DNA of 64,000 nt, taken from the NCBI GenBank assembly GCA_018266685.1, contig JAFDZY010000255.1:1488-65487 (forward strand), in the 5' to 3' direction. Position numbers and translations under genes: made by a program. This DNA comes from Bacteroidota bacterium (lineage in GTDB: Bacteria; Bacteroidota; Bacteroidia; Flavobacteriales_F; PHOS-HE28). The notes under the pieces are model-generated. The model had not been told where the DNA came from, ran no database searches, and saw only the letters and a program-made list of their open reading frames with translations. Positions 11,126-57,792 of this stretch are shown here, one piece after another. The stretch's first letter is position 1, and each line of letters begins with the position of its first letter.

Positions 11126-12238
11126 GTGAAGCGCATGGCCGGGCAGCATGAAAAAATCTTCGGCCTGGACGTGATGCGGACCGCCGCCGGCGTAATGGTG
11201 CTGCTCTCACACACCGGCCACCTGGTGGAGCAGCATTGGCCGCAGTTCCCCAATGTTCCGCACGTGGACTGGGTTGGGCTTTTCTTCGTGCTCAGCGGCT
11301 TTCTCATTGGTGGGACCTTGCTGGACAGCCTGGCACAGCCTTCGCCCGCCCCGCTTCGCTTTGCCGATTTCATGCAGCGCCGTTGGTTGCGCACGCTGCC
11401 CAACTATTTTCTCTTCCTCTTGCTGAACATCGCGCTGGTGCATTTCAGTTTGGCCCCTGGCCTGCTCACCCATGCCACCCCGGCATACGCGGTGTTCATG
11501 CAGAACTTCCACGTCCCCTTGGACCTGTTTTTTTGGGAATCGTGGTCCCTGGCGGTGGAGGAATGGTTCTACCTGTTGTTCCCCTTGATCACGTTCTTCC
11601 TGGTTGCACGGACCGGAATGCGGAGTGAACGGTCTTTCCTTGTGGCATGTGCGCTGTTCATCCTTCTGCCCGTGGCCGGGCGCCTTGCCGTGATGCACCA
11701 CGTGGTGGATGACGCGACCAGGGTGCTGTGGGTGCAGAAGATGGTGATCACGCGCTTGGATGCGCCCGGCATGGGCATGCTGGCAGCGTTGATCGCACGG
11801 CGTTTTCCTGCCCAGTGGCTCCATGTGCGTTGGCCCGCCCTGTTGTTGGGGCTTGCTGCTCTGCTGTCTTTCAGCAAGCTGCATTATACCGATGCGCCAC
11901 GCTTCATGGTGATCGGCTTTGAAAGTACCTGTGCGCTGGCCATGGCCTTGTTGCTGCCGCTGCTTTCCACGTGGCGTTCCGCAGGATCCTTAAATGGGCC
12001 CATGCGTGGACTTAGCCTGATCACCTACTCGCTCTACCTGGTCCATCTCCCCATGCTGTATCTCTTCGGAAAGTTCGTGCCCGACGGGTCCGCATGGAAA
12101 TGTGCGCTGCACTATGGCTTGTTCATCGGCGGCTGCATGGCCGTGGCTACCTTGGTCTACCGTTGCTGGGAGCGGCCTTTCATGCGCCTTCGGGATCCGT
12201 TCGGGCGGTGGTTGGCATTGCGGTGGAACCGTGCATAA
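11126..12238 (+). CDS. acyltransferase family 3 (membrane O-acyltransferase)
   Basis: About 10 TM segments and an N-terminal FGLDVMRTAAGVMVLLSHTG motif typical of acyltransferase_3. Confidence 0.8.
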   Translation: MKRMAGQHEKIFGLDVMRTAAGVMVLLSHTGHLVEQHWPQFPNVPHVDWVGLFFVLSGFLIGGTLLDSLAQPSPAPLRFADFMQRRWLRTLPNYFLFLLLNIALVHFSLAPGLLTHATPAYAVFMQNFHVPLDLFFWESWSLAVEEWFYLLFPLITFFLVARTGMRSERSFLVACALFILLPVAGRLAVMHHVVDDATRVLWVQKMVITRLDAPGMGMLAALIARRFPAQWLHVRWPALLLGLAALLSFSKLHYTDAPRFMVIGFESTCALAMALLLPLLSTWRSAGSLNGPMRGLSLITYSLYLVHLPMLYLFGKFVPDGSAWKCALHYGLFIGGCMAVATLVYRCWERPFMRLRDPFGRWLALRWNRA

Positions 12239-12268
12239 ACGTAAAGCCAATGGGGACTGCCATGTGGC

Positions 12269-14536
12269 CTACCGCTTCTTGGGGAACAGTTTCCTGAAGA
12301 AGCCTTCCTCCTTCTGATCACTTTTTGCTTCCGGTGCTTCCTTGCGCTTCTCCGTGCCTTTGTCACCCGGGCGGAAGAACACGTCCAGCACGCGCTCCAG
12401 GAAGGTGCCCGCGCGCCGGGGCTCGCAGTCCATTTCCACGGAATCCGTGGGCTGCGGAAAGGAGGTGAGGTACTTGCCGCGCATCAAGGCAGACTGCTGT
12501 ACTTCCGCCAAGGTGCCACCGATGATGGGCAGTGCCAATTGTGAACCGGTGCCGTTGGCGTTGTTGAAGTGCACGGAGGGATCACGTGCGCCCACCCACG
12601 TTGCTGCCACCAGGCTCGGCGTGTAGACGATGAACCACGCGTCGGCATAGTCCTGCGAGGTACCGGTTTTGCCTGCAAGATCTCCACGAAGGCCAAAGCG
12701 TGAGCGCAACGCAGTGCCCGTGCCTTGGTTCACCGCGCGTTGGAGCATGGCCGTGATTGTTTCTGCAACTTCACTGTCCAATGCCCGCTTGGCCGGGGGC
12801 ATTTTACCCAGGTAGATCACCTTACCCTTGGCATCGGTGATCTTCTCCACAAGTTGCAGGTTGCGCACCAAGCCTTCATTGGCAAAGGCCGCGTAGGCAT
12901 GCACCAGTTCCTGAAGCGAGATGTCTGCTGCGCCGAGTGCAAGTGCCGGTTTGTCCACGCCGCCCGTGGGCAGGCCCAGTGACCGGAAGGTGTCGCGGAT
13001 GGTATCAGCACCGGTGCGGAAGTAGAGGTCTACTGTGGGCACGTTCATGGAATGCACAAGGGCGTACCATAAGGCCACTTGCCCGCCGATGGTGTCCTTT
13101 TCGAAGTTCTGCGGGGTCCAGCCGTCGTACTCGGGGTAGCTCTTCACCTCGTTGTTCAGGTAGGTGCAGGGATCCAAACCCTTGCGCAGTGCGGCGGCAT
13201 AGATCAGCGGCTTGATGGTGGAGGCCACCTGCCTGCGGCCTTGCACCTGATCGTAAGGCAGGGTGCGGAAATCGTTTCCGCCGCTGTAGGCGCGCACCTT
13301 TCCGGTGGCGGGATCCACCATCAGGAAGGCGGCTTGCAGCATGCGGTGGTAGTGCCACAGGCTGTCGCGGTAGCTGATGCTGTCCGGCGGGGTATCGTCC
13401 CAGGTGAACACATCGCGTACGGCCCGTTCGTTCCGTTTCCACGCAGCACCGGCTTTCCTGCCTTCCGCCTTTTCCCAGGCTTTCCGCGTTCCGCGTGCCT
13501 TCAGCTCGCGGTCCAACTTGGGCTGCATGGCCGAAAGCTGTTTGGCGGTTGCGCGCAATGCCGCTTGCTGCAGCGCGGTATCCAAGGTGGTGTGGATGCG
13601 CAGCCCGTCCTTTTCAATGTCGTAGGGCAAACCGTCCTTCTTCTTGAGTTTGGCCAACGCCGCGCGCGCCTGCTGCTCCACGCGTGCATTGAAGTAGCCG
13701 TAAGCATCGAACTTCCCGGCACCTGCATAGCGGATCCCCAGCGGTAACGCCTGCAGGCTGTCGCGGGCGGCGGTGGTGAGCTTCCCGTTGCCGGCCATCA
13801 GCGCCAGCACCTGGTTGCGCCTGCCTTTTGAGGCTTCGGGATGCAGGCGCGGGTTATAGCCCGTGTTGGCCTTCAGCATGCCGATGAGCACCGCGCCCTC
13901 CTCCACCTTCAACTTCGACGCCGGCTTGCTGAAGAAGCGTTCCGCGGCGGATTCAATGCCGTACACGTCCTCACCAAAGGGAACGGAGTTCAGGTACAGT
14001 GTGATGATGTCTTCCTTGTTGTACACCTGCTCCAGGCGCTGCGCAACCAGTGCTTCCTTGATCTTGTTCACCGGCACGGTGAGCAGTCCGTGCTTTTCGC
14101 GGCCATAGAGGTTTTTAATGAGCTGCTGGGAGATGGTGCTGCCTCCGCCACCGCTGCGGTCGCGGGCCAGCAGCGTGCGGAAGAACACGCGCACATAGCT
14201 GAACGCATCCACGCCGCTGTGCTCGAAGAAGCGCTGGTCTTCGGTGGAAACGAGCGCATCCACCACGTGCTTCGGCAGGTCCTTGTACAATACGTTGGTG
14301 CGGTTCTGCGCGAATATCTTCCCGATCACCCCACCATCGGAGGAGAGGATCAACGTGGCCTCCTCGTTGCGCAAGGCAGCGAGTTCTTCCGTAGAAGGCA
14401 GCTTGCCAAAGACGTCCTTGCGCACCAGGGTGATCAGCGTGAAGATGCCCACGAAGGCCACCGCCACCAATAGGAACAGGGCTTTCCAGACGAATGCCGC
14501 GCCGCCGGATGTTTTCTTGGACTTCTTCTTCGCCAT
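12269..14536 (-). CDS. mrcA: penicillin-binding protein 1A (bifunctional glycosyltransferase/transpeptidase)
   Basis: GT51 motifs EDQRFFEHSGVD and GGSTISQQL, transpeptidase STIKP and KTGT, and an N-terminal TM anchor. Confidence 0.92.
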   Translation of the reverse strand: MAKKKSKKTSGGAAFVWKALFLLVAVAFVGIFTLITLVRKDVFGKLPSTEELAALRNEEATLILSSDGGVIGKIFAQNRTNVLYKDLPKHVVDALVSTEDQRFFEHSGVDAFSYVRVFFRTLLARDRSGGGGSTISQQLIKNLYGREKHGLLTVPVNKIKEALVAQRLEQVYNKEDIITLYLNSVPFGEDVYGIESAAERFFSKPASKLKVEEGAVLIGMLKANTGYNPRLHPEASKGRRNQVLALMAGNGKLTTAARDSLQALPLGIRYAGAGKFDAYGYFNARVEQQARAALAKLKKKDGLPYDIEKDGLRIHTTLDTALQQAALRATAKQLSAMQPKLDRELKARGTRKAWEKAEGRKAGAAWKRNERAVRDVFTWDDTPPDSISYRDSLWHYHRMLQAAFLMVDPATGKVRAYSGGNDFRTLPYDQVQGRRQVASTIKPLIYAAALRKGLDPCTYLNNEVKSYPEYDGWTPQNFEKDTIGGQVALWYALVHSMNVPTVDLYFRTGADTIRDTFRSLGLPTGGVDKPALALGAADISLQELVHAYAAFANEGLVRNLQLVEKITDAKGKVIYLGKMPPAKRALDSEVAETITAMLQRAVNQGTGTALRSRFGLRGDLAGKTGTSQDYADAWFIVYTPSLVAATWVGARDPSVHFNNANGTGSQLALPIIGGTLAEVQQSALMRGKYLTSFPQPTDSVEMDCEPRRAGTFLERVLDVFFRPGDKGTEKRKEAPEAKSDQKEEGFFRKLFPKKR

Positions 14537-14622
14537 TGGTGGGACTACGGAGCTACGCTACGGGGCTGCGAATGTTGCTCCAAATGCCTCATTACGGCAT
14601 GGACCCGCTGTCGCAGCCTCTT

Positions 14623-14915
14623 CTACCTGTCTTTACCATTGGCTCTCGGCCAATCGGTATCGTAGACTGTCACGATCTCCATCTCCATACGGCTCACTTT
14701 GTACACTACGGACACATTCGGGTGGATTACTGCGCGGCGACTCCGGGATAGGTGGCCGAGACTTGGTATCCATGGGGGAACTGCTTGACCAAGGTCTCGA
14801 ATTCCTGCAGCAAGCTCAAGAAAGGCTCCACCCACGTCCACTCCTGGATCTTCGAAGAAACGTCTACCCGAAGCTTGGCTTCCCCAGACCAGTAAACGAC
14901 GCGATCACCGGCCAT
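14623..14915 (-). pseudogene. RelE/ParE-family toxin, frameshifted copy
   Basis: Homologous to the intact copy at 16061..16366 but split over two frames (ORFs 14727..15086 and 14623..14841). Alignment of ...ggcgactccgggata with ...ggcgacacccgggata shows a 1-bp loss near 14745-14750. Confidence 0.7.
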
Positions 14916-15129
14916 GCCCCGCCCAAAACTCCTTGCTGCCGATCCGATTTCCTTTGCGCAGGTCTTCGAGGCCCTTTTCCATGGCCCGGCGCTCATCCGA
15001 GGATATATCCCCCGCCCAATCACCATGCTGGGTGGCTTTCTTGATCCCCAGTAACGAATCCAATAGACCATGGTCCTCCATGCCATTGATCCATTCGATC
15101 AACTCCTTCCGGGTGGCTTGGGCGTTCAT
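14905..15129 (-). CDS. addiction-module antitoxin-like protein (partner of the frameshifted toxin)
   Basis: 74 aa, clearly similar by eye to the 16356..16580 product, and overlaps the toxin start. Confidence 0.65.
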   Translation of the reverse strand: MNAQATRKELIEWINGMEDHGLLDSLLGIKKATQHGDWAGDISSDERRAMEKGLEDLRKGNRIGSKEFWAGHGR

Positions 15130-15191
15130 GGCTGCTCTTGTTGAACAAAGTTCGCCGCAGTTATCGGGTCAAACACGAACAAAGAGCCCTG

Positions 15192-15224
15192 CGGTTATCG
15201 CTCGTGTGTCGCGAGTGATAACTG
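15192..15224. repeat. 33-bp palindromic repeat, copy 1
   Basis: cggttatcgctcgtgtgtcgcgagtgataactg. One of four copies, all 33 nt long. Confidence 0.85.
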
Positions 15225-15299
15225 CGCCCGCAAGAACTCCTCCTCGCCCTCCAAGTGTTTTATGCATTCGCCCATCTTCTTTATGCTCGCATCGTACAT
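15195..15299 (-). pseudogene. orphan 3' fragment of an XRE-family gene (34 codons plus stop)
   Basis: Own translation: MYDASIKKMGECIKHLEGEEEFLRAQLSLATHER*. It aligns without gaps, stop to stop, with the C-terminus of the 16936..17319 protein (LYEARIKELEEVVAELRKDKLFLQTQLAAAQKER*) at about 14/34 identities. Confidence 0.45.
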
Positions 15300-15417
15300 C
15301 TTGGCATATATAGCGCTGGATGTGGTATTGCTGCCCCCACTCCCAACACCCGCATGTGATCTGGAAAGAACAGTTTCCTGCCTACGTTGAGCAGGTCAGT
15401 CATTCCCCCCTCCCGGA

Positions 15418-15786
15418 CTACAACAACCTCACCTCGATCACTTCCCTCAACCGCTTGAAGTCATTGTCGGAGATGATCAGCGGCATGTTCAACGTGGCGG
15501 CCGTGGCTGCGACCAACGAATCCGCTAACTTCAACCGGTAGTTGCTGCGCAACCACACACAACGCTCCTTGATCGACGGGCTAATGTCCCAAATGGAGCA
15601 AAAGGCAAGCACCTGGCTGATCACTTCCTGTGCGTTGCGCTTCGTCGCACACATGGTCAAAAGCTCGATCTCCGTTGCGATGGAAATGTGGACTTCACGG
15701 CCCAGCAACCATTCCCTGGCTTCAGGATTTCCTTCCAGAAAGTGGATCAACACGCTCGTATCGGCCACGATGGCGCGATCATTCAT
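15418..15786 (-). CDS. PIN-domain toxin (VapC-like)
   Basis: MNDRAIVADTSVLIHFL... carries the PIN acidic residues and is 122 aa. Confidence 0.85.
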   Translation of the reverse strand: MNDRAIVADTSVLIHFLEGNPEAREWLLGREVHISIATEIELLTMCATKRNAQEVISQVLAFCSIWDISPSIKERCVWLRSNYRLKLADSLVAATAATLNMPLIISDNDFKRLREVIEVRLL

Positions 15787-15982
15787 CGCGCAGCTCCTTC
15801 AACAGGGGGAAGGCCCACTTGCCCATTGCCGGAAGGGCACCCCACAGTTCCTCGGCATGGAACACTTTGCGCATGGGAGCATCAGTCTTTCGCTTCCGTA
15901 CCGTGGCCACGCGCTTTGTAGCACGGCTGCGACGTGCCACCGGCTTCACCGCAGGGATGGCTTTGTTCTTTTTAGTGGCCAT
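15779..15982 (-). CDS. putative cognate antitoxin of the PIN toxin
   Basis: 67-aa basic protein overlapping the vapC-like start by 8 bp. The family was not recognised. Confidence 0.55.
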   Translation of the reverse strand: MATKKNKAIPAVKPVARRSRATKRVATVRKRKTDAPMRKVFHAEELWGALPAMGKWAFPLLKELRDE

Positions 15983-15999
15983 GGCACGAAGTTAAGGCG

Positions 16000-16032
16000 C
16001 AGTTATCGCTCGCGTGTCGCGAGTGATAACTG
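16000..16032. repeat. 33-bp palindromic repeat, copy 2
   Basis: cagttatcgctcgcgtgtcgcgagtgataactg. Confidence 0.85.
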
Positions 16033-16060
16033 CCCGCTCACGCATCGCGAATGAACCACT

Positions 16061-16366
16061 TCATTCTTCGCCAGCCTGGCTCCTTGCGGACCGGTTATCA
16101 TATACGGTCACCACTTCAATCTCCGTTAGGCTGACCTTGTATACCACGGACACATTCGGATGGATCACTGCTCGGCGACACCCGGGATAAATGACCGAAG
16201 CTTGGTATCCATTGGGGAACTGCTTGATCAAGGTCTCGAATTCTTGGAGCAAGTCCAGGAATGCCGATACCTCGCGTTCGCTCCATGACTTCCGAAGAAA
16301 TTCCTTGATCTGGTCAACCCGAAGCTTGGCCTCCCCTGACCAGTAAACGTTACGATCACCGGCCAT
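16061..16366 (-). CDS. RelE/ParE-family toxin (intact copy)
   Basis: MAGDRNVYWSGEAKLRVD...RRAVIHPNVSVVYKVSLTEIEVVTVYDNRS shows the ParE/RelE-like C-terminal pattern. It overlaps the antitoxin stop. Confidence 0.75.
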   Translation of the reverse strand: MAGDRNVYWSGEAKLRVDQIKEFLRKSWSEREVSAFLDLLQEFETLIKQFPNGYQASVIYPGCRRAVIHPNVSVVYKVSLTEIEVVTVYDNRSARSQAGEE

Positions 16367-16580
16367 GGCCTGCCCAAAAGTCCTTGCTGCCGATCCGGTT
16401 TCCTTTGCGCAGGTCTTCAAGGCCCCTTTCTATGGACCGGCGCTCATCCGCGGATATATCCTCCGCCCAATCACCATGCTGGGTAGCTTTCTTAATCCCC
16501 AATAACGAATCCAATAGACCAAGGTCCTCAAGGCCTTTGATCCAATCGATCAACTCGTTCCGGGTGGTTTGGGCATTCAT
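16356..16580 (-). CDS. addiction-module antitoxin-like protein
   Basis: 74 aa, upstream of and overlapping the toxin; paralogue of 14905..15129. Confidence 0.65.
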   Translation of the reverse strand: MNAQTTRNELIDWIKGLEDLGLLDSLLGIKKATQHGDWAEDISADERRSIERGLEDLRKGNRIGSKDFWAGHGR

Positions 16581-16642
16581 GGCAGGTCCTGATGAACAAA
16601 GATAACTGTCGACAGCGGGTCAACCACGAACAAGGAGCCCCG

Positions 16643-16675
16643 CAGTTATCGCTCGCGTGTCGCGAGTGATAACTG
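16643..16675. repeat. 33-bp palindromic repeat, copy 3
   Basis: cagttatcgctcgcgtgtcgcgagtgataactg, identical to copy 2. Confidence 0.85.
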
Positions 16676-16853
16676 CCCTCGTCCATCTCCATTATTCTCC
16701 CGCCGGGTCTTCGCTTCGAGACCCCGCGGTTTGCGGGATCAAAGTCAACGCTCGGTGGAATTTTCGGATCGCAGGATCCCGATGACGGAGACCCTGCGTG
16801 AGGGCAAGCTGCAGGTGGAGTGAGGAGGCCCGTCGGTGCTGTGGGCTATCACG

Positions 16854-16886
16854 CAGCTATCGCTCCCGCGTCGCGAGTGATAACTG
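16854..16886. repeat. 33-bp palindromic repeat, copy 4
   Basis: cagctatcgctcccgcgtcgcgagtgataactg, lying 50 bp downstream of the XRE gene stop. Confidence 0.8.
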
Positions 16887-16935
16887 CCTCCGCAAAAGCT
16901 CCCCCTTCAATCCCTTGATGTGTGCCCGATGAAGT

Positions 16936-17319
16936 TCAACGCTCCTTCTGCGCGGCAGCCAACTGCGTCTGGAGAAAGAGCTTGTCCTTGCGCAGCTCCG
17001 CTACCACTTCCTCCAATTCCTTGATGCGTGCCTCGTACAGCTCATGCGCCTTATCCGACATCCCGTTGTAGGTGCTGTTGTTGTTCACACCCACCAGACC
17101 GTTGCAATGCTGGAAGAACATCTTCTCATCGAAGCTAAGGACTTGGGGAACGGTCATCTCGAAGAGCTTGGCCACCTGTTCCAACAAGGCCAAGGTCCAT
17201 TCCGACTCCCCGCTGATATAACGGCTCAGTTGGCGTTCGCTCATGTCCAACTGCGTGGCCATCCAGTCCTTGCTGAAGCCCTTCAAAAGCATGATCTTCT
17301 CGATGGAGCCTATTTTCAT
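16936..17319 (-). CDS. XRE-family helix-turn-helix transcriptional regulator with C-terminal coiled coil
   Basis: HTH segment KDWMATQLDMSERQLSRYISGES. Start taken at MKIGSIEKIM. It is divergent from the RiPP precursor gene. Confidence 0.8.
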   Translation of the reverse strand: MKIGSIEKIMLLKGFSKDWMATQLDMSERQLSRYISGESEWTLALLEQVAKLFEMTVPQVLSFDEKMFFQHCNGLVGVNNNSTYNGMSDKAHELYEARIKELEEVVAELRKDKLFLQTQLAAAQKER

Positions 17320-17541
17320 GGTCGCCTGATTTTTGACACAATCCGTCCGAAGTTCGCCAGCAATATACTTGCAAGATCCAAACAAACGTTGAAGGTTTGC
17401 ATTGCGCTAAGGCCAACACCCGCCCCACAGGCCCGCTCGTTGTGAAACGGCCGAACAACTGAAGGGGCAGTTGCCGGACCGAGGCGTGAGCGGATGCCGA
17501 AAAGCTCGGAGAGAGTAGGCGGGAAGTTCAACTAAATTGAC

Positions 17542-17781
17542 ATGAAGAAGAGTAAGAGCACTAAAAAGGCAGGCTTGTTCGATAAGCTACAGGATAACAG
17601 GTTCACCAACACGGGATTGGTGCATGGAGGAGCACCGGGGAGCCAAGCAACGAATGATCCCGATTATACCAATCTCGGCGGAGGCACCGATTGCGGGGAT
17701 CAAGACGATGGATCGCTGGTCACGGTTGATACGGTACCGACGAGTGCTGAGTTCGACACACCCACCAGGGGAGGACGTTAG
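17542..17781 (+). CDS. putative RiPP (graspetide-type) precursor peptide with double-glycine leader
   Basis: 79 aa. The leader MKKSKSTKKAGLFDKLQDNRFTNTGLVHGG holds all 6 Lys. The 49-aa core has 8 Thr, 3 Ser, 8 Asp, 1 Glu, 1 Cys and no Lys. It sits directly upstream of the ATP-grasp, SPASM and C39-ABC genes. Confidence 0.7.
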   Translation: MKKSKSTKKAGLFDKLQDNRFTNTGLVHGGAPGSQATNDPDYTNLGGGTDCGDQDDGSLVTVDTVPTSAEFDTPTRGGR

Positions 17782-17865
17782 ATCAGGACCCGTATAACCG
17801 TATTGGTTCAACAGCACCTCACGCATAGGATTGGTCATTGCGGACCATGAACGCCCTAAACAATG

Positions 17866-17924: not shown

Positions 17925-18818
17925 ATGTCATACCATCAATTTACTCATTTAAGATTCAATAAGAGCACATCATACAACTTGGGCTTCCGATGCATTCTAT
18001 TTTTCTCACTATCAACTGTAATACAAACCGTTCAGGCCCAATACCCGGTGTTCCACCTACTAGATAGTGCGCTGACACTCATGGAAAGTCCGCGTTATAT
18101 GGAAGGAGCGCAGATATACCGCACACTTCCGGCTGCACGGATTGATCCGCGGCGGAAATTGAGTGCGTGCCTGAGCGCTCTGAATAACCAAGACTCCAGC
18201 TTGTTCAAGACGGTATTGTTGGACCTCGCGGCGAACCATGGCTTTTTTGAGAACGGTCCAATGAAGATAAATGCCTTAAGAGAAGCATTGGATAGCGGTG
18301 GCTATGCGATCTGGTTGGCATCGAAACGGGATAGTTGCCGCATCCACTTCTTACGAACGCATATAGACAGATCGGAAGTAATGCGTCGCATGCGTCGCAT
18401 ATATGAATTGGACCAAGCTCGCGCTCTTGTGGAACGGTATAGTAGTGTTGATTCCGTCACATATTCTATAGTCACGGGAATAGATCAAGAGAACTTATAT
18501 GAGATTATAGCATTGGCTCATGAATATGGATTGCCGAACGATTTTGATGACCTTTGGAATACATCAGGACTCGTTGAACTTGTACTTTTTCATTGTGGCA
18601 AGAACCCGCATGGATTTCAGCAACGTTGGGATGCCATAATGCCCTATTTGAATAAGGCATACGCAGCAGGAAAGATTGGTAGCGAATATTTGCGCATTTA
18701 CGATACAACCTTGTATATGAATGCCGGTGTGCAGTATTACGGCACACTGGAAAATGCTCCTGTCCGGGATCCCAAGGGGTTGCCCCAGCGGAGAGCGGAA
18801 CGCGGTCTGGCCCCATGA
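17925..18818 (+). CDS. hypothetical protein with N-terminal hydrophobic/signal-like segment
   Basis: 297-aa low-GC ORF whose stop overlaps the ATP-grasp start (ATGA at 18815-18818). The C-terminal half (IDQENLYEIIALAHEYGLP...LRIYDTTLYMNAGVQYYGT) reminds me of the DUF6624 pattern; unverified. Confidence 0.6.
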   Translation: MSYHQFTHLRFNKSTSYNLGFRCILFFSLSTVIQTVQAQYPVFHLLDSALTLMESPRYMEGAQIYRTLPAARIDPRRKLSACLSALNNQDSSLFKTVLLDLAANHGFFENGPMKINALREALDSGGYAIWLASKRDSCRIHFLRTHIDRSEVMRRMRRIYELDQARALVERYSSVDSVTYSIVTGIDQENLYEIIALAHEYGLPNDFDDLWNTSGLVELVLFHCGKNPHGFQQRWDAIMPYLNKAYAAGKIGSEYLRIYDTTLYMNAGVQYYGTLENAPVRDPKGLPQRRAERGLAP

Positions 18819-19813
18819 TTGTGATTGTTTCAAACAATGATGATCAATCGACAAATGAAGTCATTGATTGGCTGTATCATTACGGCGTGGAATTTGTTCG
18901 GATCAATGAAGGCGACTTAGTCGCTTCATACTCCGTATCGCTTTCTATTGAGGGCTTGGTTTATGACTTCAAAATTCCATCGTTGGACATACATTTCAAA
19001 CCGCCACTAACGATTTGGTATAGACGAGGCGGGTTCTCGACCGGACGCTGGACCCCTCCACTATTGGAACCGATGAGCAGGAAGGAACAGCAATCCCTTC
19101 AAGATCAGGTTATGTGGGAATGGAAGACTGCCGAACATGCACTCACATCCACAGTATTCAACGGTATGCTCAACAGCCCGTTGGACAACGGAATCAACAA
19201 GTTCCTCGTGCTTAAAAGCGCGCATGCCGTTGGCTTGGACATACCGGAGACATTAATCACCACCAATCGTCATGAGGTGGAAGCGTTCAAACGCAAGCAC
19301 GGCCGGATTATAACAAAGAACCTTGCGCCAGGTGTGTTTGTCGAGGTCAAGAATGCGGCCTACATCGGGTTCACTGAAGAATGCTCGTGGCGGTTCATTC
19401 GTTCTCTTCCAAGAATCTTTCCGCCATCACTGTTTCAACGGATGGTGCCGAAGTGGATCGAGTTGCGCGTATTCTACTTGGATGGCACGTGCTACGCTTC
19501 GGCAATATTCAGCCAGCAAGACCGTACCACAAAGGTCGACTTCCGAAACTATAATCATGCACGTCCCAACCGAACACCACCATTCAAAATGGATGAAAAC
19601 GTACAAAGTCGTTTGCGAAATTTAATGGCCCTCCTGGGCTTACGCTCTGGATCGATAGATATGATTGTAACGCCTGCAGGGCAGTATCTTTTTCTGGAAG
19701 TGAATCCCGTCGGGCAGTTTAAGCAGGTGTCTCAACCCTGCAATTTCCGCTTGGAGCAAAAGATAGCACAACAACTGATAGAACAAAATGGATCGAATAG
19801 AACGCATCAATAA
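18815..19813 (+). CDS. ATP-grasp peptide maturase (microviridin MvdD/RimK-like; grasp-with-spasm type)
   Basis: N-terminus MIVIVSNNDDQSTNEVIDWL, NK..VLKSAHAVGLDIPETLIT, ELRVFYLDGTCYASAIFSQ...VDFRNY and YLFLEVNPVGQF match the peptide-modifying ATP-grasp pattern as I recall it. Confidence 0.85.
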   Translation: MIVIVSNNDDQSTNEVIDWLYHYGVEFVRINEGDLVASYSVSLSIEGLVYDFKIPSLDIHFKPPLTIWYRRGGFSTGRWTPPLLEPMSRKEQQSLQDQVMWEWKTAEHALTSTVFNGMLNSPLDNGINKFLVLKSAHAVGLDIPETLITTNRHEVEAFKRKHGRIITKNLAPGVFVEVKNAAYIGFTEECSWRFIRSLPRIFPPSLFQRMVPKWIELRVFYLDGTCYASAIFSQQDRTTKVDFRNYNHARPNRTPPFKMDENVQSRLRNLMALLGLRSGSIDMIVTPAGQYLFLEVNPVGQFKQVSQPCNFRLEQKIAQQLIEQNGSNRTHQ

Positions 19814-19973
19814 GCTTATAAAGAGCTGTGATTCCTTGCCTCCGTACTTTAGGATGAGCCACTTTACATCACGTGTACCGTTGGACCCGTCCACGTCCCA
19901 AGCATCGCTACGGCACAGGTCTACAAATTACAGATACCGCCCTGAAGTAAAACCTCCAGTTGTGCGCTGAACG

Positions 19974-21065
19974 ATGCAGATCTTTAAATTGCACGAGCAA
20001 GTGCGATTGCATAAAGGCCAATTGCGTGGTGTGGCCTATGATTTGCAACGCCAAGACTATTGGTTCCTGCCTTTGGGTGTGATTAATGCAATCGTGGAAT
20101 TGGAGGGCAAGCCAATAGAGAAGCTGCACGAACGACTCAGGCGCCCGAGCATGCCTCAGGGTGAATGGGTTGATTGCCTGATAAGTAGGGAAGTCATTTT
20201 TCCTTTGCCGCACGGCTTCCTCAAAAATTTCCCTGCACTTGATCTCACCTATGCCAAGCCTGGAAAGATTAGCACGGCTGTGGTGCCTTTGCCATATATC
20301 GACCACTCCATCGTTAAAGTCTTGGAGCGCGCAGGGTGCCATCATTTGGCGGTGGAAATAACTGCTGAAGAAACAAGCGGCTTAAATGCATTAGGGCCCG
20401 TTCTGGAAGGCACATCAATCAACTCTGTTTCTCTTCATTTCTCCTATTCGGCAGAATTGGATGCCAAGTTGGTGTGTTTGCTTAAAGAGCCCATCCACGC
20501 CAAGGTAAAGCAGGTGTACATACACTCTGCGCCTGATACTACCGTGAAGAAGAATCAAGGTATCGCATTGCACTACAATACGGCCATAACGAAGGAAGGC
20601 TACTTCCGTCCGAGTCTCGTATTGCATCAGGATACTTATTTGGAAGCCCTGACTTGGAATGTATATTTCAATCGAAAGATCTTCTTGACCCGTAATGGAA
20701 GTGTCACGATTGGTGATGGCGAAGAAATGCCGCTGGGCCATGGTAAACAGCGCATGCATGACCTTCAGGTGTTCCTTGATGGATTAGGCACACCTGCACT
20801 CTGGTCTTCGCGTAAGGACGAAATATCCGTTTGTGACGATTGCGAGCTGCGATATATGTGCATTGATCCTCGTGTGCCGGTCCAGCGTAAAGACGGTTCA
20901 TATTACCACAACTCGGAATGCAGCTACAATCCATTCATTGCGAAGTGGAGTGACGAAGCAGGCTTTGCGCCTCTTGCGGAATGCGGTGTGGTGAGCAATG
21001 CCGAAGGCTTTACCATTGATCACGAGCGCATTGCCGCCATCAATGCGGAACTCTGGGGGGAATGA
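19974..21065 (+). CDS. SPASM-domain peptide maturase lacking a radical-SAM cluster motif
   Basis: C-terminal Cys cluster SVCDDCELRYMCID...NSECSYNPF (C-x2-C-x5-C...C). No CxxxCxxC anywhere in the 363 aa. Its stop overlaps the start of the C39 ABC exporter. Confidence 0.75.
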   Translation: MQIFKLHEQVRLHKGQLRGVAYDLQRQDYWFLPLGVINAIVELEGKPIEKLHERLRRPSMPQGEWVDCLISREVIFPLPHGFLKNFPALDLTYAKPGKISTAVVPLPYIDHSIVKVLERAGCHHLAVEITAEETSGLNALGPVLEGTSINSVSLHFSYSAELDAKLVCLLKEPIHAKVKQVYIHSAPDTTVKKNQGIALHYNTAITKEGYFRPSLVLHQDTYLEALTWNVYFNRKIFLTRNGSVTIGDGEEMPLGHGKQRMHDLQVFLDGLGTPALWSSRKDEISVCDDCELRYMCIDPRVPVQRKDGSYYHNSECSYNPFIAKWSDEAGFAPLAECGVVSNAEGFTIDHERIAAINAELWGE

Positions 21066-23320
21066 GCTTCCCCTTCTACCAGCAGCCCGACCACATGGAC
21101 TGCGGGCCCACTTGCCTGCGCATAGTGGCCAAGTACCATGGAAGGTCGGTAAGCCTGCCCAAACTGCGGGCCTTTAGCGAGACCACCCGCACGGGGAGCA
21201 ACCTGCAGAACATTGCGCAAGCCGCCGAGGCCATCGGCTTTCGTACATTAGGGGTAAAGGTCTCCTTGCAAAAAATCTTGGATGAGCAGCCGTTGCCCTG
21301 CATTTTGCATTGGAACAGCAACCACTTTGTGGTGTTGTACAAAGCCAAGCCCAGCAAAGGCAAACTGAAGTTGCACGTGGCCGATCCCGGCCACGGCCTG
21401 CTCACCTACACCGAGCGGGAATTTCTGGACAGGTGGATCGGTGCGAACAGCCACCGGGATACCCAGGAAGGCATTGCGCTGCTGCTGGAACCCAGCCCTC
21501 GGCTGATAGAGCAGGAAGACGACGACAGCGAGCAGCAGAACAAGCAAGGTTTCCGCTTCCTGTTCCGCTACCTGCTACCACACAAGAAGTTCATTGTTCA
21601 ATTGGCCATCGGCCTGCTGGCGGGCAGCTTGATCCAATTGCTCTTCCCCTTCCTTACCCAAAGCGTGGTGGACGTGGGCATCCAGCACCGGGATGTGTCC
21701 TTCATCTGGTTGGTGCTGATCGCGCAGCTCTTCCTCTACATGGGCAGCACGGCCATCGAGCTGATCCGGGGCTGGATCCTGCTGCACCTCAGCGCCCGCA
21801 TCAACATCGCGCTGGTCTCGGATTTCTTCATCAAGCTGATGAAGCTGCCCATCGGCTTTTTCGACGTGAAGCAGACGGGCGACATTTTGCAGCGCATCAA
21901 CGACCACAAGCGCATCGAGCAGTTGCTCACCACCTCCTCGCTCAGTGTGCTGTTCTCGCTGTTCAACCTGGTGCTCTTCGGGGCGGTGCTGGCCTGGTAC
22001 AGCGGGATCATCTTCGCGGTGTTCCTCGCGGGCAGCTTGGTATACGTGGGCTGGGTATGGCTCTTCATGCAGCGCCGCCGCGACCTGGATTTTAAGCGCT
22101 TCGACCAGATGAGCGCGGAGCAGAGCAAGGTGATCGAGCTGATCGCGGGCATGCAGGAGATCAAGCTGCACAACGCCGAGCGGCAGAAGCGCTGGGGCTG
22201 GGAGGACCTGCAAGCCCGCCTGTTCAAGGTGCAAATGAAGAGCCTGGCCTTGGAGCAGACACAAAGCACGGGCAGCGGCTTTGTGAACCAGGTGAAGAAC
22301 CTCTTCATCACCATCCTCAGCGCCAAATTGGTGATCGACGGGGCCATCACCTTGGGCATGATGATGAGCATCAGCTACATCATCGGGCAGCTCAACAGCC
22401 CCATCCAGCAGTTGATCGGCTTTATGTACACCACCCAGGATGCCAAGATCGCGCTGGAACGCCTGAGCGAGGTGCACGGCCGGGCGGATGAGGAGAGCCC
22501 AGCGTCCAACGCAGGGTCCGCTTCGCGTGACCCTGCGGGGACTTTAATACACGACATACCGCCGGACAGCGACCTCGTGCTGAAGGGCGTGGACTTTCGC
22601 TACCCCGGCAGCCCCGAGCCGGTGCTGAAGCAACTGGATCTGAAGATACCCGCGCGGAAGGTCACGGCGATTGTGGGGAGCAGCGGCAGCGGCAAGACCA
22701 CGCTGATGAAACTGCTGCTGAAGTTCTACCCGCCGGACAGCGGCCAACTGCTGTACGGCAGCACGCCGCTGGAGCAGATCGGCCACCATGCCTGGCGCGC
22801 CCATTGCGGCACGGTGATGCAGGAGGGCTTCATCTTCAACGACACGGTGGCCAACAACATCGCTATCGGGCAGGAGGATGTGGACCGCGAGCGCCTCATG
22901 CATGCCGCGCGGGTGGCGAACATTTTGGACTTCATTGAGGAACTGCCCTTGGGCTTCAACACCAAGATCGGCGGCGAGGGTTTGGGCATGAGCGCGGGGC
23001 AGAAGCAGCGGATCCTGATCGCCCGCGCGGTGTACAAGCAACCGCAGCTGCTCTTATTTGATGAGGCCACCAGCGCACTGGACGCCACCAACGAGCGCAC
23101 GATCATGGAGAACTTGGATGCGTTCCTGCAAGGCCGCACCGCCGTGGTGATCGCGCACCGCTTGAGCACGGTGAAGAACGCGGACCAGATCGTGGTACTG
23201 GATGAAGGCCGCATCGTGGAAGCGGGCAAGCATGCGGAGTTGATCGCCCAGGGCGGGATCTACTTCCGGTTGGTGCGGGACCAGTTGCAATTGGAGCAGG
23301 TGGGGGCGCCAGTCGGTTAA
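21062..23320 (+). CDS. peptidase-C39-domain ABC transporter (double-glycine bacteriocin/RiPP exporter, PCAT)
   Basis: N-terminal C39 motif QQPDHMDCGPTCL, six-TM exporter domain, Walker A GSSGSGKTT, signature MSAGQKQR and Walker B LLLFDEATSALD. Confidence 0.93.
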   Translation: MSFPFYQQPDHMDCGPTCLRIVAKYHGRSVSLPKLRAFSETTRTGSNLQNIAQAAEAIGFRTLGVKVSLQKILDEQPLPCILHWNSNHFVVLYKAKPSKGKLKLHVADPGHGLLTYTEREFLDRWIGANSHRDTQEGIALLLEPSPRLIEQEDDDSEQQNKQGFRFLFRYLLPHKKFIVQLAIGLLAGSLIQLLFPFLTQSVVDVGIQHRDVSFIWLVLIAQLFLYMGSTAIELIRGWILLHLSARINIALVSDFFIKLMKLPIGFFDVKQTGDILQRINDHKRIEQLLTTSSLSVLFSLFNLVLFGAVLAWYSGIIFAVFLAGSLVYVGWVWLFMQRRRDLDFKRFDQMSAEQSKVIELIAGMQEIKLHNAERQKRWGWEDLQARLFKVQMKSLALEQTQSTGSGFVNQVKNLFITILSAKLVIDGAITLGMMMSISYIIGQLNSPIQQLIGFMYTTQDAKIALERLSEVHGRADEESPASNAGSASRDPAGTLIHDIPPDSDLVLKGVDFRYPGSPEPVLKQLDLKIPARKVTAIVGSSGSGKTTLMKLLLKFYPPDSGQLLYGSTPLEQIGHHAWRAHCGTVMQEGFIFNDTVANNIAIGQEDVDRERLMHAARVANILDFIEELPLGFNTKIGGEGLGMSAGQKQRILIARAVYKQPQLLLFDEATSALDATNERTIMENLDAFLQGRTAVVIAHRLSTVKNADQIVVLDEGRIVEAGKHAELIAQGGIYFRLVRDQLQLEQVGAPVG

Positions 23321-23463
23321 CCACGGATAGACACGGATGCACACGGAAAACTCTATATGGCCGGATGCCTGAGCATGAAATCCATAGCTCAGCCTCAGGG
23401 TCCGCTTCACACCTTCGCGAAGACGCTTCGGCGCACAAAGCGCGAGACCCTGCGGGAGTTCTG

Positions 23464-24738
23464 ATGGTCATGGCCGAACTGCGCAGCGAGCGCGTGCAGG
23501 AGATCATGGGGCATGTGCCCACGTGGACGATCCGCTACGGCATCACCGTGATCTTCAGCGCCATCGTGCTGCTGTTGCTGTTGGCATGGATGATCCGCTA
23601 CCCGGACGTGGTGACGGCACCCGGCACGTTGACCAGCACGGACCCGCCGCGCAATGCCGTTGCCCGCAGCGAGGGGAAGCTGGTGCGCATCGCGGTGGCC
23701 GAAGGCGATACCGTGGCGGCGGGCGATGCCTTGGCGGTGATCGAAAGCACGGCCAACCCTGCGGCCATGGACAGCATGGCCGCACTGCTGCCGGCGTTGC
23801 AACAGGCGTTGGTTTCCGGTGCGGAACAATTCCCCGTGCTTGGGAATTTGGACGTTGGCGAAGGGCGCACCGAGCTGGCCACCTTGCGCACGGCGCTCGC
23901 GGAAATGCAAGCGTGGCGCACGGACGCGTACCGCGCCCAACGCAATGCGGGCCTGCGAGAAAAGATCGCCATGTACCGCAAGCTGATCGGCTCCACGCAA
24001 AACCAGTTGAGTTGGACGTACAAGAAGCAAGCGAACTACGTGGCGGAGGCAAAGGTGGACAGCCTGTTGGCCAACAAGGGCGTGATCGCCACCACGGAGC
24101 TGCGCCAAAAGCAGAACGCCTTCCTGGACCAGCAAGTGGGCGTGGCCAACATGGAGCATGGCTTGCAACAATACCGGTTGGCCCTGCTGGAAACGGAAAC
24201 GCAATTGAACGATGCACTCCATGCGGATGAGAACCGGCAGCGCGAATTGGAAGAAGCGTTTCGGGGCAGCATGGAACGCCTGCGCGCATTTCTGGAAAGC
24301 TGGCGGTTGAGCCACACGTTGTCCGCACCCGTTGCCGGGCGGGTCTATTTCGCAGGTCGGCTCACCTTGAAACAATCCGTGAAAAGCGGGGACGTGCTCT
24401 TCAGCGTGGACCCGTTGGTGGCCAGCTACGTGTTCGAGGCCGCCGTGCCTTCCGCCGGTTCAGGCAAAGTACACTTGGGCCAGCAGGCGTACATCCAGCT
24501 TGAGGGCTTCCCCTCGAATGAGTTCGGCAAATTGATCGGCACGGTGCGTTCCATGTCGTCCATGCCGCATGAGGGTAGCTACCGCGTGGTGGTGGAATTG
24601 CCGGAAGGGCTGCGCACATCGTTCCACCGCACGTTGAAGTACCATCCGGAAATGAAGGGATCGGTGGAAGTGGTGGCCCGGGAACGCTCGGTGCTGGGAA
24701 GGATCTTTGACAAGGTGCGGGGGGCGGTGGAGCGGTGA
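23464..24738 (+). CDS. HlyD-family secretion (membrane-fusion) protein
   Basis: N-terminal TM, biotinyl-lipoyl-like GDTVAAGDALAVIES, long coiled coil and a C-terminal beta-barrel. The start is moved past a palindromic repeat that occupies the track N-terminus. Confidence 0.85.
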   Translation: MVMAELRSERVQEIMGHVPTWTIRYGITVIFSAIVLLLLLAWMIRYPDVVTAPGTLTSTDPPRNAVARSEGKLVRIAVAEGDTVAAGDALAVIESTANPAAMDSMAALLPALQQALVSGAEQFPVLGNLDVGEGRTELATLRTALAEMQAWRTDAYRAQRNAGLREKIAMYRKLIGSTQNQLSWTYKKQANYVAEAKVDSLLANKGVIATTELRQKQNAFLDQQVGVANMEHGLQQYRLALLETETQLNDALHADENRQRELEEAFRGSMERLRAFLESWRLSHTLSAPVAGRVYFAGRLTLKQSVKSGDVLFSVDPLVASYVFEAAVPSAGSGKVHLGQQAYIQLEGFPSNEFGKLIGTVRSMSSMPHEGSYRVVVELPEGLRTSFHRTLKYHPEMKGSVEVVARERSVLGRIFDKVRGAVER

Positions 24739-25041
24739 GGGCTGTGCTCAGGAGCGGCATTCCCGGAGGCCGCCAGAGGCGGATGGGCACTGACGCACTC
24801 GCGAAAAACGCGAGCGCGGGCTTCATTGTGGTGATCTGCTCCCTCAAGGTCTCCCGCAGGGGACCTTGTAGGTGGAACTCTGCTGCGTCAAGGTCCGCTT
24901 CAAGCCTTCGCGAAGTGCTACGGCCTGCACAGCGCGAGACCTTGATGGGACTCTGAGGGGACCTTGATGGGACAACTCGGGGGTGTTCTGTATGAGGACG
25001 GACCTTTGATCGGGGTGCGGGGAGCGATGTGACCTGCCGTC

Positions 25042-56982: not shown

Positions 56983-57423
56983 GCATAAAGGTGGGTGTGC
57001 AATTACGAGGAATGGGCAATTTCAACTGGGAACCGGTCATGCTTGGCATCAATTGCCGCAGAATTAGCTGCGGAAGCCACACTACGGAGTGCCCTGCCTG
57101 CTTGGTGACGCGTCAAGCAGCTCTCCCGAATGTCGGACCCGGAATATGCAGCATGATGACTACTACGACCCGGAAGCGCTTTGCCACAGTGCGTTTCACG
57201 CATTTTCGTTTCTCACCGGGAACATGGCCCCGCCTTCGTCACGAAAATGCCTGTGGCCGTGCGTTTCCCGCTCTCGATACGTCCCCTGCTGCATAATCCG
57301 GGTCTGAACAAAGACCTTGCTATTCTGAAGCCCGACGTCAAAATAACAAGGCAGAAGCATGTGCCCAAGTTCATCGAAAAGCAGTGTCCACGCTTGGTGA
57401 AGTCCGCCAGCTTCTCTTCTCCC

Positions 57424-57792
57424 TCAGGCCGTCTTCGCTGCCAAGGGATGCCCCAACCAAAGGATGGCGAAGGCCAGTGCCACCACCCATACCTCACCGA
57501 AGAACCCCTTCCAATCGTGCAGGAACACAAACTGCACCAGCAGGAACACCACAACGCCGAGGTTGAGCCAACTGCCCCACACGAACGTCTTCGGTACGAA
57601 CATCATGAGGCAACCGATGATGGTGACGGCGCCTAACAACTGCCGTAGGATGGGCGCGGTGCCGAAGGGCTCGAAAAACGCCACCATGGCGCTGCTGTTG
57701 GTGAGCATGCCCCAGCCTGCGCGCAGGCTCATCCAGGCCATGAAGAGAATCAATGCGCCACTGAGGATGCGTAATGCCATGTTCATGTCCAT
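57424..57792 (-). CDS. small 4-TM membrane protein (DoxX-like)
   Basis: MDMNMALRILSGALILFMAWMSL.... Start chosen at the first Met before the hydrophobic core. Confidence 0.5.
   Translation of the reverse strand: MDMNMALRILSGALILFMAWMSLRAGWGMLTNSSAMVAFFEPFGTAPILRQLLGAVTIIGCLMMFVPKTFVWGSWLNLGVVVFLLVQFVFLHDWKGFFGEVWVVALAFAILWLGHPLAAKTA

Follow-up and report, generated by a model that had tools for sequence, protein, structure and literature searches.

The 64,000-nucleotide stretch of contig JAFDZY010000255.1 analysed here (hereafter the window), from a Bacteroidota bacterium, encodes a 363-residue GwsS-like protein, a pseudo-radical-SAM (S-adenosylmethionine) and half-SPASM protein (19974..21065, plus strand), within what is a complete, already catalogued grasp-with-spasm cassette for a graspetide. 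The cassette comprises a divergently transcribed regulator of the helix-turn-helix (HTH) Cro/C1 type (16936..17385, minus strand; Pfam HTH_26, 6.7e-05, and HTH_3, 1.2e-04) and, on the plus strand, a 79-residue precursor peptide (17542..17781), whose leader (MKK...GLFDKLQ...VHGG) is followed by a core rich in T, S, D, E and G with one cysteine (GGTDCGD), a secreted 297-residue protein with a hydrophobic segment at its N-terminus and no match in Pfam or NCBIfam (17925..18818), the ATP-grasp peptide maturase GwsG (18815..19813), and a small, unannotated 'LPL'-type open reading frame (ORF) of 60 residues between GwsG and GwsS (19788..19970). GwsG scores 265 bits with TIGR04192, against a cut-off of 230 bits, its residues 2-321 aligning to positions 1-318 of the 318-position profile. 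Downstream of GwsS lie a C39-peptidase ABC exporter (21062..23320, plus strand; Pfam Peptidase_C39, 8.9e-29, with ABC_membrane and ABC_tran) and a HlyD-family membrane-fusion protein (23365..24738, plus strand; TIGR01843, 6.1e-32; Pfam HlyD_3, 5e-14). The start of the exporter gene and the stop of the GwsS gene overlap by 4 nucleotides, an arrangement that suggests translational coupling.

The order HTH regulator, precursor, ~290-residue protein, ATP-grasp protein, small ORF or ~160-bp gap, SPASM protein, C39-ABC exporter and HlyD protein is repeated in four related loci (L004, L006, L007 and L008), and in 74 of the 79 related loci found in GTDB species genomes, almost all of them Bacteroidota, the gene directly upstream of the SPASM gene is an ATP-grasp homolog. 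The HTH gene's position and orientation are matched in the same four loci, and homologs of the window regulator occur in nine further ones. Counterparts of the 297-residue protein (279-316 residues, 20-43% identity) occupy the equivalent position in L004, L006 and L007, and from its position and the published description the protein probably corresponds to 'cluster 23' in PMC8939145. With the exporters of L004, L006 and L007, that of the window shares 77% identity. The LPL-type ORF (MDRIERINKLIKSCDSLPPYFRM...YRYRPEVKPPVVR, with SLPPYFRM ... YRYRPEV), which resembles a small-protein family described in PMC8939145, was left uncalled by gene finders in L001-L003, L006 and L007; its protein sequence is conserved in L006 (MERIARINKLLKDCASLPPYLRLGHF...) and similar to a called 73-residue protein of the second L006 cassette (ALPLYLRL), and a small ORF ends at the start of the SPASM gene in 73 of the 77 grasp-spasm pairs of the related loci. 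Two loci of the 79 belong to bins assigned outside the Bacteroidota, namely metagenome-assembled genomes of a Phycisphaerales (L062) and an Acidobacteriota (L067), and could reflect either horizontal transfer or mis-binning.

At the precursor position, related loci carry small ORFs with an LFxK(L/F)(E/Q) leader, a GG site, and cores of the type GGTDCGD, GGPDCGD or RGTDSGD, the last being the form that GGTDCGD takes in the close relative L007, with Ser for Cys. Across the related loci the leaders share LFxK(L/F)(E/Q)...GG, and the cores are extremely diverse: candidate cores in L024, L028, L033, L034, L052, L054, L062 and L085 are free of cysteine, and others hold up to six or more. Automatic calls on the identical contigs L001 and L002 put an antisense ORF of 83 residues (17587-17838, minus strand) in place of the precursor; across loci it is the peptide on the plus strand whose leader, GG site and GGTDCGD motif are conserved.

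The sole NCBIfam match of the window protein is TIGR04193, 'grasp-with-spasm system SPASM domain peptide maturase' (E = 3.9e-30), with which it aligns colinearly in one stretch (residues 4-327 on profile positions 2-334 of 342) at 105.5 bits, short of the 175 bits curated as cut-off. Even at E<=1 it has no match to the SPASM domain model (TIGR04085 / PF13186). TIGR04193 is matched by all 27 aligned relatives and TIGR04085 by 13 of the 27, which bears out the original prediction that the cysteine cluster is SPASM-derived, and on these profile matches the SPASM homology of the window protein appears established via its family, not directly. Relatives with the full seven-cysteine motif reach 246-324 bits with TIGR04193 and 27-32.8 bits with TIGR04085, whose cut-off is 27 bits. 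Judged by motif and score, these relatives are the canonical GwsS and the window protein is part of a larger, more reduced branch, a membership that explains its sub-threshold score.

A word-indexed search returned 36 homologs, and a full hidden Markov model scan of 1.84 billion representatives returned 3,873 proteins at E<=0.001, of which 2,102 reached E<=1e-30, so that the family spans more than 2,100 50%-identity clusters at E<1e-30. The NCBI entry for the identical protein, from a Bacteroidetes metagenome-assembled genome, is a hypothetical one. The grasp-with-spasm system was reportedly defined by Haft and Basu in 2011. These loci form branch 5 of the graspetide ATP-grasp loci in PMC8939145, where TIGR04193 is 'cluster 20', and the gene names gwsG and gwsS are those of a 2026 preprint (bioRxiv 10.64898/2026.08.04.741601). 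The original prediction had called the function undefined and had named a new type of catalyst among the options; it needs correcting in that both family and cluster were already catalogued (TIGR04192/TIGR04193; PMC8939145; bioRxiv 10.64898/2026.08.04.741601). PMC8939145 calls the SPASM protein a radical SAM enzyme without comment, and suggests that it might form thioether or carbon-carbon links. As a general activity on the core, formation of cysteine thioethers, suggested in that paper, is ruled out, as several associated cores contain no cysteine. We found no experimental work on GwsS in the literature searched, most subscription journals having been outside its scope.

Translation confirmed the ORF itself, its coordinates, strand and length, the cysteine strings quoted in the original prediction and the lack of CxxxCxxC. 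The eight cysteines are at positions 68, 122, 168, 287, 290, 296, 316 and 337; SVCDDCELRYMCID holds C287, C290 and C296, and NSECSY holds C316, 20 residues past C296. The reading frame contains neither CxxxCxxC nor the relaxed form Cx2-7CxxC. An in-frame stop precedes the ORF, whose start is the first ATG, GTG or TTG past that stop, so that an N-terminal extension cannot conceal a radical SAM motif. The remaining five frames of 19400-21400 hold a single chance match, on the minus strand and, judging by its offset, inside the ABC gene. A cryptic motif brought out by a corrected frame or start, a case for which the original prediction had allowed, was in this way looked for and not found.

The motif is equally missing from the homologs: CxxxCxxC occurs in 0 of 172 database homologs, in the sequences as retrieved, and in 0 of 83 near-full-length homologs translated from the GTDB species genome loci. 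On the homologs examined, its absence is a trait of the whole GwsS family; being evident in every member examined, it is unlikely to be news to the curators of the family. Given the absent motif, and what is established about the way such enzymes bind SAM, GwsS cannot, on its sequence, carry out radical SAM chemistry or bind the SAM-cleaving cluster canonically, in line with the earlier expectation that the protein would not perform canonical SAM cleavage. Pfam gave no Radical_SAM or PqqD match in the window protein or the 27 relatives, and one marginal SPASM match only. Where relatives match radical SAM families of NCBIfam, the matches cover their SPASM parts, except for two marginal longer stretches (TIGR04340 on P0036 and TIGR04053 on P0141). 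No radical SAM gene that might act in trans was found in the 64-kb window, where the sole other CxxxCxxC lies in a 129-residue open frame (57213-57602, minus strand), and none was found in the cassette or in the conserved neighbourhood of the related loci.

The cysteines that do survive are confined to one half of the SPASM motif. They lie in a SPASM-derived domain (residues 216-327; 20619..20954, plus strand), where C287 (20832-20834), C290 (20841-20843), C296 (20859-20861) and C316 (20919-20921) are 100% conserved in an alignment of 160 near-full-length homologs. CxxCx5C is present in 172 of 172 database homologs and 83 of 83 genome homologs, and the full pattern CxxCx5C-x15-25-C-x-YNP in 168 of the 172. 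The SPASM motif has been defined as CX9-15GX4C...CX2CX5CX3C...C and holds two auxiliary clusters (Aux I and Aux II); in anSMEcpe, the Aux II ligands C317, C320, C326 and C348 are the CX2CX5C triplet and the last cysteine (PMC5715301). The spacing CX2CX5C...C of C287, C290, C296 and C316 is the same as that of these Aux II ligands (PMC5715301). At the would-be fourth cysteine of CX2CX5CX3C, 152 of 172 homologs have Arg. The window protein retains four of the seven SPASM cysteines, with Y231, G247 and P299 in the Aux I columns, and the Gly of the first half of the motif persists as G242 (95% conserved). The SPASM-type cluster of the original prediction accordingly stands as half of the motif only, with the four Aux II-type cysteines.

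A minority of the family has the first half too, for instance as NTCLNRKICIDAEGNIKNC (CX10GX4C) along with CKDCEFRYMCTDC. Among the 83 genome homologs, the CX9-15GX4C pair and the extra cysteine past CX2CX5C are both present in 27, both absent in 56, and split in none. The Aux I ligands thus appear to have been lost as a unit, as would be expected for the ligands of one cluster. As far as the alignments tell, the remaining four-cysteine site is homologous to Aux II and this branch is without Aux I ligands, and most close relatives of the window protein seem to have the same one-site form. The position of C122 is Cys in 70% of homologs, and C68 and C168 are not conserved. Tandem pairs of grasp-spasm cassettes lie on one contig in L006, L009, L026, L034, L040, L042, L072, L074 and L081, and several of them, such as L009, L026 and L034, combine a one-site (Aux II only) with a two-site SPASM protein. 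Cys-free cores accompany SPASM proteins of both forms.

The 363 residues were modelled with AlphaFold2, with 27 homologs as input, and the full-length model was confident (pLDDT 89.7, pTM 0.81). Its N-terminal part is a predicted winged-helix domain like a RiPP recognition element (RRE), a PqqD-like fold of a three-stranded sheet and three helices (residues 1-87; 19974..20234, plus strand) with conserved G15, R18, D23 and P33, made of strands 2-6, 10-14, 18-23 and 28-33 and then helices 34-43, 48-55 and 65-71. By Foldseek, the N-terminal ~85 residues match the RREs of lasso-peptide B1 proteins (6jx3_B and 5v1v_A; probability 0.95-0.96, target TM 0.58-0.61), so that on the model the RRE-like nature of this domain is reasonably supported, and the earlier guess at an RRE-like substrate-binding function gains support. 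Six of the eight top matches of the full-length model in the PDB are chains of the radical SAM-SPASM peptide maturases SuiB and CteB, at E = 2e-4 to 3.5e-2 and with TM scores of only 0.21-0.29; both structures begin with an N-terminal RRE.

The middle alpha/beta domain (residues 88-215; 20235..20618, plus strand) consists of four beta-alpha units and a hairpin, and occupies the position of the would-be radical SAM core. In the radical SAM fold the cluster loop sits between the first strand and the first helix; here the link from beta1 (101-105) to alpha1 (111-119) is 5 residues long and has no cysteine. Residues 88-363 were also modelled alone (second AlphaFold model, pLDDT 85.7). As this model has no significant match in the PDB, the reading of the middle domain as a demonstrable degenerate radical SAM barrel was dropped. 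From position and layout only, we infer that the domain descended from such a barrel. Two HMMER profiles, one built on the whole family and one on the Cys-rich domain, were run against all PDB sequences and found no radical SAM or SPASM enzyme and only insignificant small Cys-rich proteins; a weak match to a chain named OT3 (7uek; E = 3.9e-4) covers the repeated beta-alpha units only.

Past the SPASM-derived domain, and past the end of the TIGR04193 match (residue 327, profile position 334 of 342), lies a C-terminal tail (residues 328-363; 20955..21062, plus strand) predicted as a beta-hairpin and a helix with a pLDDT of 94-96. It ends in ...ECGVVSNAEGFTIDHERIAAINAELWGE and has the consensus ...EeGY.tLaECGv.sne.GFsIDheria.IN.eLWgE. 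The protein is therefore not the stand-alone SPASM protein first proposed, since RRE-like domain, alpha/beta middle domain, SPASM remnant and conserved 36-residue tail can all be distinguished. The comparison of folds that the original prediction had recommended gave a divided answer, with SuiB and CteB as best matches of the complete model and no significant match for residues 88-363 alone.

Conservation is distributed very unequally over these parts. Positions conserved to at least 80% number 5 of 87 in the RRE-like domain, 1 of 128 in the middle domain, 29 of 112 in the SPASM-like domain and 6 of 36 in the tail. As the one conserved position of the middle domain is not polar, there is no conserved active site there; the alignment points to a middle domain without a conserved active site or cofactor pocket, and to constraint on the Cys-rich domain and the tail. 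Conserved positions of the SPASM-like domain include E224, N233, K235, K281, E291, R293, D298, R300, E315, Y318, N319, P320 and W325.

The tail, at least 35 residues long in 215 of 237 homologs, is 74-84% identical to that of the window protein in three of four cassettes compared and 61% identical in the fourth; the N-terminal parts of the SPASM proteins in the same four cassettes are 20-60% identical to that of the window. Recent recombination was considered as a source of the tail conservation and rejected: third-codon identity in the tail is 0.45-0.50 with L004 and L007, no higher than in the rest of the gene, and the conservation therefore probably acts on the protein. Between loci whose exporters are 77% identical, the ATP-grasp genes are 37-79% identical, and the exporter also has the higher synonymous-site identity. 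This pattern suggests that biosynthetic modules have been swapped beside a conserved export module. The window also shows a sharp step in guanine-plus-cytosine (GC) content, from 44-52% in the biosynthetic genes (17.5-21.0 kb) to 58-66% in the exporter genes and the flanks (21000-25000 and 12000-17000), and the rise is located in the last ~150 nucleotides of the SPASM gene, the region of the tail.

The reading that we favour, with a probability of about 0.5, is that the protein is a GwsS-type pseudoenzyme adaptor, the obligate partner of the ATP-grasp ligase GwsG, with one structural cluster. Its layout of RRE-like domain, alpha/beta domain, SPASM remnant and tail fits descent from maturases of the SuiB/CteB type, with RRE, radical SAM and SPASM domains. 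In such an adaptor, binding of the precursor by its LFxK(L/F)E...GG leader would fall to the RRE-like domain at the N-terminus, and GwsS would offer the core to GwsG to be cross-linked through ester or amide bonds. A [4Fe-4S] cluster in the four-cysteine site would have a structural part, maintaining the fold of the conserved C-terminal domain, and the conserved tail may dock on GwsG or on the C39-ABC exporter, leading to hand-over to leader cleavage and export. We count in favour of the adaptor its RRE-like N-terminus with SuiB and CteB as best PDB matches, the lack of a conserved polar residue in the middle domain, the variation of the N-terminal part among cassettes with differing precursors, set against the tail (61-84% identical) and exporter (77%), the stop/start overlap with the exporter gene, and the lack in the window of a radical SAM gene for action in trans; the diverse, partly Cys-free cores support a role of GwsS that is independent of core chemistry.

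Several observations weigh against this reading. The RRE matches carry Foldseek E-values of 0.1-0.16, despite their probabilities of 0.95-0.96, and come from one predicted model, and sequence models of PqqD and RRE do not match the window protein. The PDB search with the model of residues 88-363 returned nothing significant, only assorted alpha/beta proteins (best E = 0.098), so that no radical SAM or SPASM structure is matched once the N-terminal domain is removed. The LPL small protein has been proposed as a chaperone of the precursor (PMC8939145), a task that an RRE in GwsS would in part duplicate. The charged and polar invariants E224, N233, K235, K281, E291, R293, D298, R300, E315 and N319 exceed what a pure scaffold needs and could mark an active site. 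Sequence cannot tell a Fe-S cluster from zinc at the four-cysteine site, where the adaptor is supposed to hold a structural [4Fe-4S] cluster, and the steps proposed for the mechanism are drawn from sequence and a predicted model.

The invariant residues lead to the alternative that survives best, an unlikely one in our judgement, in which GwsS is itself an enzyme and its single cysteine-bound Fe-S cluster, together with the invariant charged residues, modifies the core independently of SAM, for example by redox or Lewis-acid dehydration, oxidation, or cross-linking of the T-D-(C/S)-G-D stretch. It draws strength from the SPASM-like domain being the most conserved part of the protein (29 of 112 positions, with E224, K281, E291, R293, D298, R300, E315 and N319 among them), from the retention of the gene beside GwsG in 74 of 79 loci and from the GGTDCGD-type motif shared by the precursors of close relatives, and a further modification is also assumed in the literature (PMC8939145). 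Against this stand the extreme diversity of the cores, some of them Cys-free and that of L007 with Ser for Cys, and a middle domain that has no conserved residues at the would-be substrate barrel. Aux II is regarded as an electron conduit and not as a substrate site. Moreover, Aux I, the cluster nearer the active site, is the one that was lost, and the Aux II site is proximal to the surface and about 27 Å from the radical SAM cluster in solved SPASM enzymes (PMC5715301).

The same residues admit a wider reading, a doubtful one, that GwsS proteins make up a large class of Fe-S enzymes that modify peptides independently of SAM, or of redox-sensing gatekeepers, in which the surviving Aux II-type cluster, with the invariant acidic and basic residues around it, would install or license a second graspetide modification.

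Less probable again is a variant of the adaptor in which zinc occupies the four-cysteine site, or the site is a knuckle of structural value only, leaving a metal-stabilised scaffold without redox chemistry. Four invariant cysteines in a CX2C...C...C arrangement can also form Zn(Cys)4, all other Fe-S sites of the ancestral fold are gone, and the profile search of the PDB gave insignificant small Cys-rich proteins and no radical SAM or SPASM enzyme. The spacing of CX2CX5C and the distal cysteine, however, fits the [4Fe-4S] Aux II cluster (PMC5715301), and the seven-cysteine relatives pass the SPASM model (up to 32.8 against 27 bits), which argues for continuity of a cluster-binding site.

It is very unlikely that GwsS still takes part in radical chemistry, be it through non-canonical ligands such as C68, C122 and C168 or as a SPASM or electron-transfer subunit of a separate enzyme. 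Split arrangements do exist among catalogued families, as in the weak matches of relatives to TIGR04304, 'GeoRSP system SPASM domain protein', and C122 is Cys in most homologs (70%); yet C68 and C168 vary, cassette, window and the conserved neighbourhood of related loci are devoid of a radical SAM gene, and the middle domain has no conserved polar residue left for binding SAM. A decaying remnant without function, to which the loss of two of three ancestral cluster sites and the score under the family cut-off might point, is barely credible for an intact, stop/start-coupled ORF with a confident predicted fold and strict synteny, whose four cysteines and many other residues are invariant in 160 homologs and whose family exceeds 2,100 clusters.

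Four elements of this picture are added here: the alignments indicate that the surviving cysteines are specifically the Aux II set, that the family appears to divide cleanly into two-site and one-site forms, and that the middle domain seems devoid of conserved polar residues (1 of 128 positions conserved to at least 80%), and the model predicts an RRE-like N-terminus. None of the 255 homologs can bind a SAM-cleaving cluster canonically, and two thirds of the genome-encoded ones are also without Aux I; radical cross-links are therefore not to be presumed when structures of Bacteroidota graspetides are predicted. This large family provides a natural series, with one against two auxiliary sites, that can be used to ask what a lone SPASM auxiliary cluster does, a question that concerns active radical SAM enzymes too. 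If the adaptor model is true, the GwsG family needs a separate leader-binding subunit, which matters for heterologous production of the peptides. If, instead, a SAM-independent enzyme class is the true account, the SPASM fold can act as a catalyst in its own right, apart from radical SAM chemistry.

Upstream of the cassette, the window carries two paralogous two-ORF modules (14727-15129 and 16061-16580, both on the minus strand), each with a 74-residue protein (MNAQ(A/T)TR(K/N)ELI(E/D)WI...GNRIGSK(E/D)FWAGHGR) that overlaps an open frame of ~119 residues; the first copy has no Pfam match, and the layout resembles that of a toxin-antitoxin pair. Between both module copies sits a PIN-domain gene (15418-15786, minus strand; Pfam PIN, 9.3e-18), preceded by an overlapping 67-residue ORF (15779-15982), and the layout of these two genes (15418-15982) resembles that of a VapBC-type toxin-antitoxin pair.

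Among known systems, the catalogued families TIGR04150 ('pseudo-rSAM protein') and TIGR04304 share with the window protein a radical-SAM-like or SPASM character that by name is not that of ordinary radical SAM enzymes. They differ in their gene contexts, and their matches on the SPASM part of relatives reach 15-20 bits against cut-offs of 250-300 bits. Non-catalytic RRE partners, such as the ocin-ThiF-like or 'F' proteins of YcaO cyclodehydratases and PqqD with PqqE, bind the leader and present the peptide to the catalyst. Their likeness to GwsS is one of functional analogy only, as the origin of the fold differs and these partners are without a Fe-S site.

The Twitch domain, as in BtrN and MoaA, is likewise a truncated SPASM-type domain that has a single auxiliary site. 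Its single cluster occupies the Aux I position. Twitch lacks CX2CX5CX3C (PMC5715301), whereas the window protein keeps CX2CX5C and the distal cysteine and is without Aux I ligands; Twitch enzymes are, furthermore, active radical SAM enzymes.

SuiB (5v1q) and CteB (5why), the best structural matches of the full-length model, also have the SPASM-type cysteine motif at the C-terminal end. Their domain order is that of the window protein, from an RRE at the N-terminus through an alpha/beta domain in the centre to a Cys-rich domain at the C-terminus. In contrast to them, the window protein has neither CxxxCxxC nor Aux I, and its middle domain is far shorter, with ~128 residues in four beta-alpha units; moreover, they have no sequence-level match to it, and the structural match is gone without the RRE part.

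The closest comparison is with GwsS (TIGR04193) itself. The window protein, at 105.5 bits, retains the Aux II cysteines only, whereas the proteins that pass the cut-off keep the seven cysteines of Aux I and Aux II. The two have in common the lack of CxxxCxxC, an invariant CX2CX5C...C, the YNP(Y/F)I.KW motif, and the neighbourhood of GwsG (TIGR04192), LPL protein, C39-ABC exporter, HlyD protein and GG-leader precursor.

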